From a virus (taxonomy: Duplodnaviria > Heunggongvirae > Uroviricota > Caudoviricetes), in IMG/VR virus record IMGVR_UViG_2534681656_000013: a stretch of 9,647 nucleotides of DNA; one strand, given 5' to 3'. Under the pieces are notes generated by a model, which saw only the letters and a program-made list of their open reading frames with translations, searched no databases and was not told the DNA's origin. The first letter of the stretch is position 1; the number at the start of each line of letters is the position of its first letter. Below, piece after piece: positions 7,046 to 9,034 of this stretch. A program made the translations under genes and the position numbers.

Positions 7046-7052
7046 CCCACCT

Positions 7053-7078
7053 GACCGGCATCTGCCGGTCTTTTTTTT
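7053..7078 (+). terminator. Rho-independent terminator of the alpha operon (gaccggc-atct-gccggtc followed by 8 T)
   Basis: 7-bp GC-rich stem (7053-7059 / 7064-7070) with a 4-nt loop, then T7071-T7078, immediately after the alpha stop (7043-7045). Confidence 0.75.
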
Positions 7079-7089
7079 ATCCCGACATC

Positions 7090-7400
7090 CCCCGAAGGTG
7101 AACAATCCACTGTTCACCCTTCACCGTATATTCACCCGTTATCACACTGAAATTAAAAGAGAAAAACGAAAGGTGAACAGTGTGAACAATCAAATCAAAA
7201 AAAACTTTTTTTCTTCCTGTGTGATTTTCAGTGCGGAGGATTAATCACCGGTATGAGTCACACCGGCAGAATGCCGGAGGTGAAGAATCGAATGTTCACC
7301 CTTCACCCATTATTCACCACCTATCCAACTGAAATAAAAGGAGAAAACAGAAAGGTGAACAGTGTGAACAGTTCTTCCGAAAAAAAATTTTTTTCCTGAG
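7090..7400 (+). repeat. crr: crr-like cis replication region: two roughly 140-bp direct repeat units (182-bp period) carrying type I iterons in both orientations
   Basis: GGTGAACA at 7097-7104, 7172-7179 and 7354-7361; TGTTCACC at 7111-7118 and 7293-7300; degenerate copies at 7181-7188, 7279-7286 and 7363-7370. Motif positions repeat with an exact 182-bp offset. Each unit ends in an A/T homopolymer tract. Confidence 0.7.
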
Positions 7401-7523
7401 TTAACGTGCGTGAAGATGCGTGTAAAAATTAATCGATAGATATTATATGTATAAGGATGTGTATAAATGAATTAGAATAGAAAAATATAAACGATTTAAA
7501 TCAAATGGTTATATGTCAATTTT

Positions 7524-7544
7524 GACTCCTGTGATCTTCCGCCA
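7524..7544 (+). other. Attachment-site core: 21-nt stretch matching the 3' end of tRNA-Sec (selC), ending in GCCA; no upstream tRNA body
   Basis: GACTCCTGTGATCTTCCGCCA matches my recollection of the selC 3' terminus (...GGTTCGACTCCTGTGATCTTCCGCCA). The match breaks immediately upstream (caattttgactcc versus caggttcgactcc), so this is a 3' fragment or att core, not a tRNA gene. It lies about 300 bp upstream of a P4-family integrase. Confidence 0.65.
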
Positions 7545-7842
7545 ATTAACATCTTCTGAACTCTCCCGATGTCAACCACCCTTTCTAATCCCTTGTATAT
7601 CAGGATTCCTTTGTATCCAGAAGTCAACCGACTTCACCCCGTATCAAGTTGCTTTTGGGGGTACTTTAGGGGGTATTATTTCCTATTGAAATATCAGCAC
7701 CCCCATAATTGGTAAAATATGATATATAACAACGGCTTTCAACAACATCTTTGTTATACAAGGGGTGCATTGGGGGTATCAGGTTAATTACTGGCAGAAG
7801 TCCCCCTCAGGAACATGAATTCATTAAAAGCCGGAGGATGTC

Positions 7843-9034
7843 ATGGCATTAACCGATATTAAAGTGAAAACCGCAAAACCAAAAGAAAAGCCCTATAAAC
7901 TTGCTGATGGCGGCGGTATGTATCTACTGATTAACACTAATGGTTCTAAATACTGGCGTATGAAGTACCGCTTTGCTGGTAAAGAAAAGATGCTTTCTAT
8001 TGGCGTATACCCCGATGTAACGCTAGCCGACGCTCGTGAAAAACGCAGCGAAGCCAGAAAAATCCTCGCTGCTGGAGGCAATCCAGGGGTGGCAAAAAAA
8101 GAAGAAAAAATCGCGCAACAAATGAGTTTGAAAAATACGTTCGAGGCCATTGCTCGCGAATGGCATCAGTCAAAAGCCGATCGGTGGTCATTACGCTATC
8201 GTGATGAAATCATTGATACCTTTGAAAAAGACATTTTTCCCTACATTGGCAAACGCCCTATCGCCGAAATCAAACCAATGGAGTTACTGGAAGCACTGCG
8301 TAAAATGGAAAAACGTGGAGCTCTGGAGAAAATGCGCAAAGTCCGCCAGCGCTGTGGTGAAGTGTTCCGCTATGCAATTGTTACTGGTCGGGCAGACTAC
8401 AACCCTGCTCCCGATCTTGCCTGTGCTTTAGCTACACCGAAAAAAGTACATTTTCCCTTTCTTACTGCTAATGAACTTCCCCACTTCCTCAACGATCTGG
8501 CGGGTTATACCGGAAGTATCATCACTAAGACAGCTACTCAGATCATTATGTTAACTGGTGTACGAACACAAGAATTACGTTTCGCACGCTGGGAGGATAT
8601 CGATTTTGAGACAAAATTATGGGAGATTCCGGCAGAAGGTAATGAAGATGAAGCGACCTCATATTGTGCCGCTCTCTGAGCAGGTCATTGCCCTATTTAA
8701 GCAACTTGAACCCATCACAAAACATCATCCTCTGGTCTTTATCGGTAGGAACGATCCTCGCAAGCCAATTAGTAAGGAAAGCATTAACCAAGTCATTGAA
8801 TTACTGGGATATAAGGGAAGACTCACAGGGCACGGTTTCAGACACACCATGAGTACCATTCTGCACGAACAGGGCTTTAATTCCGCCTGGATTGAAATGC
8901 AGTTAGCTCATGTGGATAAAAACGCCATCAGGGGTACCTATAATCATGCCCAGTATCTCGATGGTCGCCGTGAAATGATGCAGTGGTACGCAGATTATAT
9001 TGATTCGCTTTATAAGCAAGAGAGTCAGGGTTAA
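7843..9034 (+). pseudogene. int: P4-family tyrosine integrase, disrupted by a +1 frameshift near 8636-8642
   Basis: The N-terminal part (7843-8679) has the typical P4-type start (KTAKPKEKPYKLADGGG) and the first catalytic Arg (TGVRTQELRFARWEDID). The C-terminal part continues in the +1 frame (homology resumes around 8639: ...KMKRPHIVPLS..., through 9034) and carries the HxxR box (GHGFRHT) and the Tyr region (RGTYNHAQY). Total about 396 codons; GGAGG RBS upstream. Much more AT-rich than the satellite core. Confidence 0.8.

Follow-up and report, generated by a model that had tools for sequence, protein, structure and literature searches.

A P4-like satellite and a Tia/Leo-type island at selC: an attachment core almost certainly formed by tandem elements and not by an attP

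The replication region and attachment site of the satellite phage P4 (X51522) provide the nearest template for the left part of the locus described here. P4 carries psu, delta and sid, the C4/CI RNA and alpha, and alpha is followed by a terminator, crr, arm repeats and a core; tandem pairs of 12-nt arm repeats lie about 55-80 nt from this core on the crr side and about 113-136 nt from it on the integrase side. P4 uses leuX, its core being 20 nt long and its arm repeats of the GGGGGCA type. The retronphage phiR73 is described as P4-like and as residing in selC (Sun, Inouye & Inouye 1991, as cited in PMC6174562 and PMC8628076). Pathogenicity islands use the same tRNA gene: the Tia island (PAI tia, ROD-20) of ETEC H10407 is flanked by selC direct repeats (PMC7545054), and GGGGGT repeats have been found at both ends of another selC island, GIselC17584/1 (PMC6174562). 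Tandem P4-like elements and adjacent remnants are noted in surveys of the family (PMC8628076).

The window (the whole stretch of 9,647 nt that we analyzed; Table 1) resembles each of these systems in part. With P4 it shares the gene content, the order from alpha to the core and the geometry of the attachment site; it differs in that its satellite is selC-specific with TGTATA arm repeats, and in that we read the window as the integrated right end of that satellite rather than as an attP, with an integrase that is not the satellite's own. The likeness to phiR73, which we draw from its description, lies in a P4-like satellite with a selC attachment site and cargo between int and psu, the cargo being a retron there and a PDC-M18-like gene pair here. 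The Tia island of H10407 has the same core, P' arm, integrase, intergenic region and IS3 element as the right part of the window, and L008, a contig that contains a nearly identical copy of the window, continues as that island does into a phosphoethanolamine transferase gene and leoA. In H10407, however, the integrase is intact (396 aa) and adjoins selC, whereas here it is frameshifted with a satellite in between, and the island in L008 has an IS66 insertion in a TPR gene. Finally, arrays of selC, a P4-like prophage and LEE in EHEC O157:H7 and O145:H28 have the same series of elements (selC, satellite integrase, cargo, psu to alpha, crr, core, a second integrase or its remnant, pathogenicity island). 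The downstream island in these arrays is LEE and not Tia/Leo, and the second integrase of O157 is intact, with ~91% DNA identity to the integrase in the window.

We conclude that the junction in the window is, almost certainly, a composite attR/attL and not an attP: two elements, each with the selC 3' end as its attachment site, stand here in tandem. The observations that separate these readings are the comparison of flanks, the arm-type repeats and a natural presence/absence polymorphism, joined by L008 and by the arrays in closed genomes. Below, int1 denotes the integrase of the satellite and int2 that in the window.

Table 1. Features of the window and of the attachment sites compared with it (window coordinates unless a locus is named; offsets are from the core)
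Feature	Position	Strand	Basis or detail
P4-like satellite prophage, right-hand ~7.5 kb	1-7544		part of a ~10.6-kb element; match to 14EC007 ends exactly at 7545
psu	222-794	-	Pfam Psu on identical genes of related contigs
delta	868-1368	-	Pfam Ogr_Delta on identical genes
sid	1365-2117	-	P4-type gene set
alpA/vis-like, AlpA-type HTH gene	2651-2917	+	Pfam Phage_AlpA on identical genes
c4-a1b1 RNA	2976-3028	+	Rfam
isrK	2989-3066	+	Rfam, 69.7 bits
C4 antisense RNA	3174-3261	+	Rfam, 74.9 bits
ash/icd-like, epsilon-like and orf151 genes	within satellite part		Pfam Phage_ASH and Derepression among labels of identical genes
DUF5375 gene	4377-4697	+	Pfam label of identical gene
alpha (primase-helicase gene)	4712-7045	+	777 aa; Pfam Zn_Ribbon_Prim, Toprim and D5_N on identical gene
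t-alpha-like terminator of alpha	7053-7080	+	hairpin 7053-7070, then T run
crr	7092-7395	+	two 122-nt direct repeats, 7092-7213 and 7274-7395, 80% identical
Satellite att P arm	7396-7523	+	23.6% GC; tandem 12-nt arm-type pair ATATGTATAAGG/ATGTGTATAAAT at 7445-7468
TGTATA pair, satellite crr side	7448-7465		offset -76 to -59
21-nt core GACTCCTGTGATCTTCCGCCA, 3' end of tRNA-Sec (selC)	7524-7544	+	attR core of satellite, attL core of island
Island P' arm and integrase leader	7545-7842	+	tandem arm-type pair CTTTTGGGGGTA/CTTTAGGGGGTA at 7652-7675
GGGGGT pair, Tia-type island integrase side	7657-7674; H10407 L001 12137-12154		offset +113 to +130
int2, integrase of resident Tia/Leo-type selC island, pseudogene	7843-9034	+	frameshifted
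Terminator-like hairpin after int2	9082-9097	+	
IS3-family transposase gene, 3' end	9417-9647	-	position as in H10407 island
TGTATA pair, satellite side beside selC/int1	L008 2313-2330		offset +114 to +131
GGGGGT pair, Tia-type island distal end	L016 31800-31817		beside further core at 31876; offset -76 to -59

The left part of the window is a P4-like satellite prophage. The core gene set (psu, delta, sid, alpA/vis-like, epsilon-like, alpha, CI/C4 RNA) is present and, with crr, matches the definition of such an element; an integrase of its own and direct repeats, which complete the definition, are found in L008, outside the window proper. The gene labels come from Pfam on identical genes of related contigs and from the RefSeq annotation of a 99.7%-identical copy in E. 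coli 14EC007. A spacer (1-221) precedes psu. By Rfam, the RNAs at 2976-3261 (+) are the CI immunity RNA of P4 and its targets. The c4-a1b1, isrK and C4 RNAs overlap mechanically called ORFs, and RefSeq calls those ORFs an "Icd-like" protein. A tRNA scan of the window returned no tRNA gene; only the selC 3' core lies inside it.

From alpha through crr (4712-7393), the window is 98.5% identical to P4 at the DNA level, and a terminator is annotated in P4 at the position that corresponds to the one behind alpha here (X51522 4604-4628). The crr repeats contain GGTGAACA/TGTTCACC iterons of the type-1, alpha-binding type, which fits the crr annotated in P4. Homology to P4 runs out at the end of crr, at ~7393, and the satellite's integration module, composed of att arms and an integrase, has no DNA-level relationship to the leuX-specific module of P4. 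Position 7393/7394 is a clean module-swap boundary in the satellite, which ends ~130 nt further on.

The two sides of the core have separate counterparts elsewhere. To the right, window 7521-9647 is 99.9% identical to H10407 (megablast; one gap, one mismatch), in which the matching DNA directly follows tRNA-Sec and leads into IS3, an eptA-like gene, leoABC and tia. To the left, window 1-7545 matches a 14EC007 satellite at 99.7% identity; this satellite is bounded on its left by selC and its own integrase and on its right by the core and the chromosomal backbone (a rhuM remnant, setC, yicL). Both matches break at the core, the satellite match stopping at 7545 and the H10407 match starting at 7521. 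The 60 nt left of the core recur without a difference to the left of the distal core in 14EC007, and the 60 nt right of it likewise after intact selC in H10407; over longer distances, the satellite P arm is identical to the flank left of attR in 14EC007 and L008, and the island P' arm and integrase leader to the DNA right after intact selC in H10407 and L018. The core occurs as a single copy in the window and was found 0 times in 200 shuffles, and tRNA-Sec ends in the identical 21 nt in L001-L004 and L008.

What lies to the left of the window can be read from L008 (GCA_000355515.2, AQEX01000028.1, 512 kb), which matches all 9,647 nt of it with 1 mismatch and no gaps. Its order is yicI, yicJ, intact selC (2105-2199), int1 (2362-3549), two cargo genes and then the window, followed by IS3, IS66, the phosphoethanolamine transferase gene and leoA. 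The core is present at 2179-2199 and again at 12813-12833, which delimits a satellite of 10,634 bp; the array thus has two cores in L008, with selC intact at the proximal end. int1 encodes 395 aa in an intact reading frame, and int1 and selC are located ~1.7-3.2 kb left of window position 1, a placement taken from contigs 99.98-99.99% identical to the window and not from the window sequence. The sequence-only reading had proposed a look at the flanks for a second core, an intact selC and a second integrase; all are in L008. It had also stated that an attP would be refuted if the satellite's opposite end had an intact selC and a cognate integrase; L008 has both there, the integrase being intact. 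Its preference for a tandem array, in which the satellite's attR adjoins an integrase from a second selC island, is borne out by the flanks, L008, the arm repeats and the polymorphism alike.

The int1 and int2 proteins are 70% identical and fall into separate 90% clusters with generic names; the closest relatives of int1 in the phage collection, at ~49% identity, are integrases from Erwinia and Klebsiella phages. L008, L017, L019 and L022 differ from the window only at 2646 (T in one, G in the other), a position 5 nt ahead of the alpA/vis-like start codon. The cargo of the satellite, from int1 to psu (L008 3544-5289, minus strand), ends immediately left of window position 1; this place is the known defence hotspot of P4. 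It consists of a pair of genes (386 aa and 194 aa) that matches the PADLOC candidate defence system PDC-M18A (E = 2e-34) plus PDC-M18B (E = 2e-14). Contigs with a 100%-identical alpha protein bear other cargo, for example a UvrD-like helicase with DUF2290 in L010, and related satellites of complete genomes carry GapS4a (O145) or a DEAD-box helicase (O157).

Satellite and island are also found apart. The satellite is alone at selC in 14EC007 and L005-L007, and the island in H10407 and L018/L021. The truncated 278-aa product of int2 is called on 24 contigs: in ~16 of them the satellite lies upstream (L017, L019, L020, L022 and about 12 similar places), and in the other ~8 the frameshifted gene sits directly beside selC with no satellite (L018, L021 and about 6 similar places). 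From 7524 onward, the satellite-free contigs show no difference from the window (100% identity). Since the same frameshifted int2 occurs with and without the satellite, the satellite is a discrete unit that was inserted between selC and an already-broken integrase, or excised from there; the pattern could reflect gain rather than loss. Closed genomes show arrays of the same kind. O157 FDAARGOS_293 has selC, an integrase, cargo, psu to alpha, the core, a second integrase, IS elements and LEE, and in O145:H28 the same satellite abuts LEE remnants. The O157 selC satellite is presumably the published "933L" prophage; a literature search on "933L" with selC found nothing. At the island's distal end, the expected place of a third core copy in the array, a core was observed only in H10407.

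The island has further marks of change. Its TPR-repeat gene is split in L008 (16094-19686) by an IS66-family element (tnpA, tnpB, transposase), and the same gene is intact in H10407 (L001 15285-16328) and L018; the insertion is further island decay beside the dead integrase. The Tia island of H10407 holds internal integrase fragments (L016 13492-13684 and L001 23896-24078), which suggests that this island is itself a mosaic of earlier accretions.

The arm-type repeats give a test that can be applied within the window. An attP would have the arm sites of one integrase on both sides of its core. Here the pair to the left is TGTATA and the pair to the right GGGGGT, with further copies of the island arm type at 7698-7705 (-) and 7771-7778 (+). 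Each motif pair recurs at the other end of its own element, TGTATA beside selC and int1 in L008 and GGGGGT at the distal end of the Tia-type island, and neither has any other occurrence in the loci compared. The core of the window is flanked by the arm sites of two different integrases and is therefore a hybrid, attR of the satellite and attL of the island, not an attP.

These repeats bear as well on whether the two elements might form a functional composite, moving as one unit or using int1 in place of the dead int2 on the island's sites. The cores are identical, the integrases are similar at the level given above, and int1 is intact where int2 is dead, all of which would suit such an arrangement. 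Against it, the TGTATA and GGGGGT arm sites are completely different, so that binding of int1 to the arms at the island ends is unlikely; the satellite comes and goes alone while the island stays; and a composite of ~55 kb would exceed the capacity of a P4-size or P2-size head. We consider the composite highly improbable. The related claim that int1 acts in trans on the island att sites, rescuing the mobility of a Tia-type island or excising satellite and island together, strikes us as very unlikely, as the arm sites of the two elements differ; if true, it would tie helper-phage induction of the satellite to instability of a virulence island.

Ownership of int2, on which the sequence-only reading had correctly seen that a tandem array and an attP differ, can be settled: the gene is the island's, not the satellite's, and an insertion of 1 bp has inactivated it. 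Its coding sequence is split into 7843-8679 (278 aa) and a second ORF in another frame (8558-9034) by a G at 8638/8639 that the alleles of H10407 and O157 lack. The extra G separates the frame with Arg-I (TGVR) from that with HxxR and the catalytic Tyr, and an intact catalytic domain (R...HxxR...Y in one frame) was accordingly not found. Programmed frameshifting was considered and dismissed, there being no slippery motif at GAA-GGT-AAT and every other allele being single-frame. int2 sits 298 bp from the tRNA end, as do the integrases of selC islands (Tia/SHI-2/LEE type, ~300 bp), and the GGGGGT repeats are at both ends of the island.

The opposing interpretation is that of an intact attP in a non-integrated (plasmid-state or virion) P4-type genome that owns this integrase. 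It draws on the order alpha, crr, att core, int, which the sequence-only reading had described and which stands at the coordinates of Table 1; this is the order in P4's own genome, and int2 is an integrase of the P4-family type with an arm-binding domain. In such a genome, however, the core would not be flanked by arm-type repeats of two types, int2 would not be frameshifted, and the DNA after int2 would consist of satellite genes toward cos and psu instead of the H10407 island (IS3 element, Tia/Leo). The near-identical contigs (49-581 kb) are chromosomal, with selC and int1 at the far end, and the true P' arm of the satellite, which is its selC-side flank and begins with aacttcatccagcc, is unlike the window from 7545 onward. 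We see next to no chance that the window carries an attP.

Base composition had been a main argument of the sequence-only reading for the tandem array, and its figures are largely reproduced. GC content is 55.5% over 222-7400 and 44.0% over 7545-9034 (44.6% for int2), so the integrase is indeed far more AT-rich than the satellite core. The drop was placed at about 7400; in fact the fall begins at the alpha stop codon, with 42% over 7046-7400 (crr) and a minimum of 23.6% at 7401-7523. As this minimum is still satellite DNA, the GC step is not an element boundary, and the boundary is the core. Nor does the contrast point to a tandem array. int1 has 42.9% GC and a GC3 of 0.36, the intact H10407 allele of int2 a GC3 of 0.42, and alpha 61% GC and a GC3 of 0.72. 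The k-mer comparison that had been suggested gives the same picture: in tetranucleotide profile, int1 correlates with int2 (r = 0.68), and neither does so with the satellite core (r = 0.04 for int1 and 0.17 for int2). Because int1 is as AT-rich as int2, composition is no guide to ownership, a true attP would show the same contrast, and we rejected composition and k-mer comparison as discriminators.

The exact 41-nt junction had 0 matches in genome contigs and 0 in metagenome contigs, and none of the complete E. coli genomes covers at least 80% of 6800-9647; a 301-bp junction query found its best match, at 90.8%, in the LEE arrays of O145. The exact combination is therefore absent from those collections and was recovered only via an exact-protein index. 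A misjoin of two selC-related contigs through the 21-nt repeat would explain why the join falls exactly on a repeated sequence, but we give this almost no weight, as a repeat of 21-22 nt is shorter than the usual assembly k-mers, the junction is present in at least 4 independent assemblies or read sets (NCBI, Logan) and in similar places, on contigs of up to 512 kb, and closed O157 genomes have the same kind of junction.

The tandem array almost certainly arose in the following order. An older pathogenicity island of the Tia/Leo type was already resident at selC, with int2 298 bp from the tRNA end. A P4-like satellite with the replication module of P4 and a different, selC-specific integration module arrived later. 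As a resident island regenerates the end of the tRNA gene, the satellite would have met an intact selC 3' core. Recombination of the satellite attP with this core, presumably catalyzed by int1, would place the satellite between selC and the island. The P4/lambda-type tyrosine recombinases need only the core region on the bacterial side; an occupied selC hence stays a target, and each new arrival inserts next to the tRNA gene. If int1 and the AlpA/Vis-like protein excised the satellite, the junction of selC and int2 would be restored and a circular satellite released, and this circle would carry the true attP, with TGTATA arms on both sides. The island, with int2 dead, would be left with no integrase supply of its own, and the difference between the arm sites of satellite and island makes cross-use of int1 on the island unlikely.

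For annotation, these results mean that 7843-9034 should be assigned to a pseudogene of a Tia/Leo-type selC island, that the satellite boundary should be set at 7544, and that 7524-7544 should be labeled attR of the satellite and attL of the island. They also offer a practical rule: pairs of arm repeats that are specific to an element and keep a fixed distance from the core can tell an attP from a tandem junction even where no flanking sequence is available. The arrangement itself is already known in E. coli: the locus is one more case of the serial occupation of the selC hotspot, with no new mechanism.
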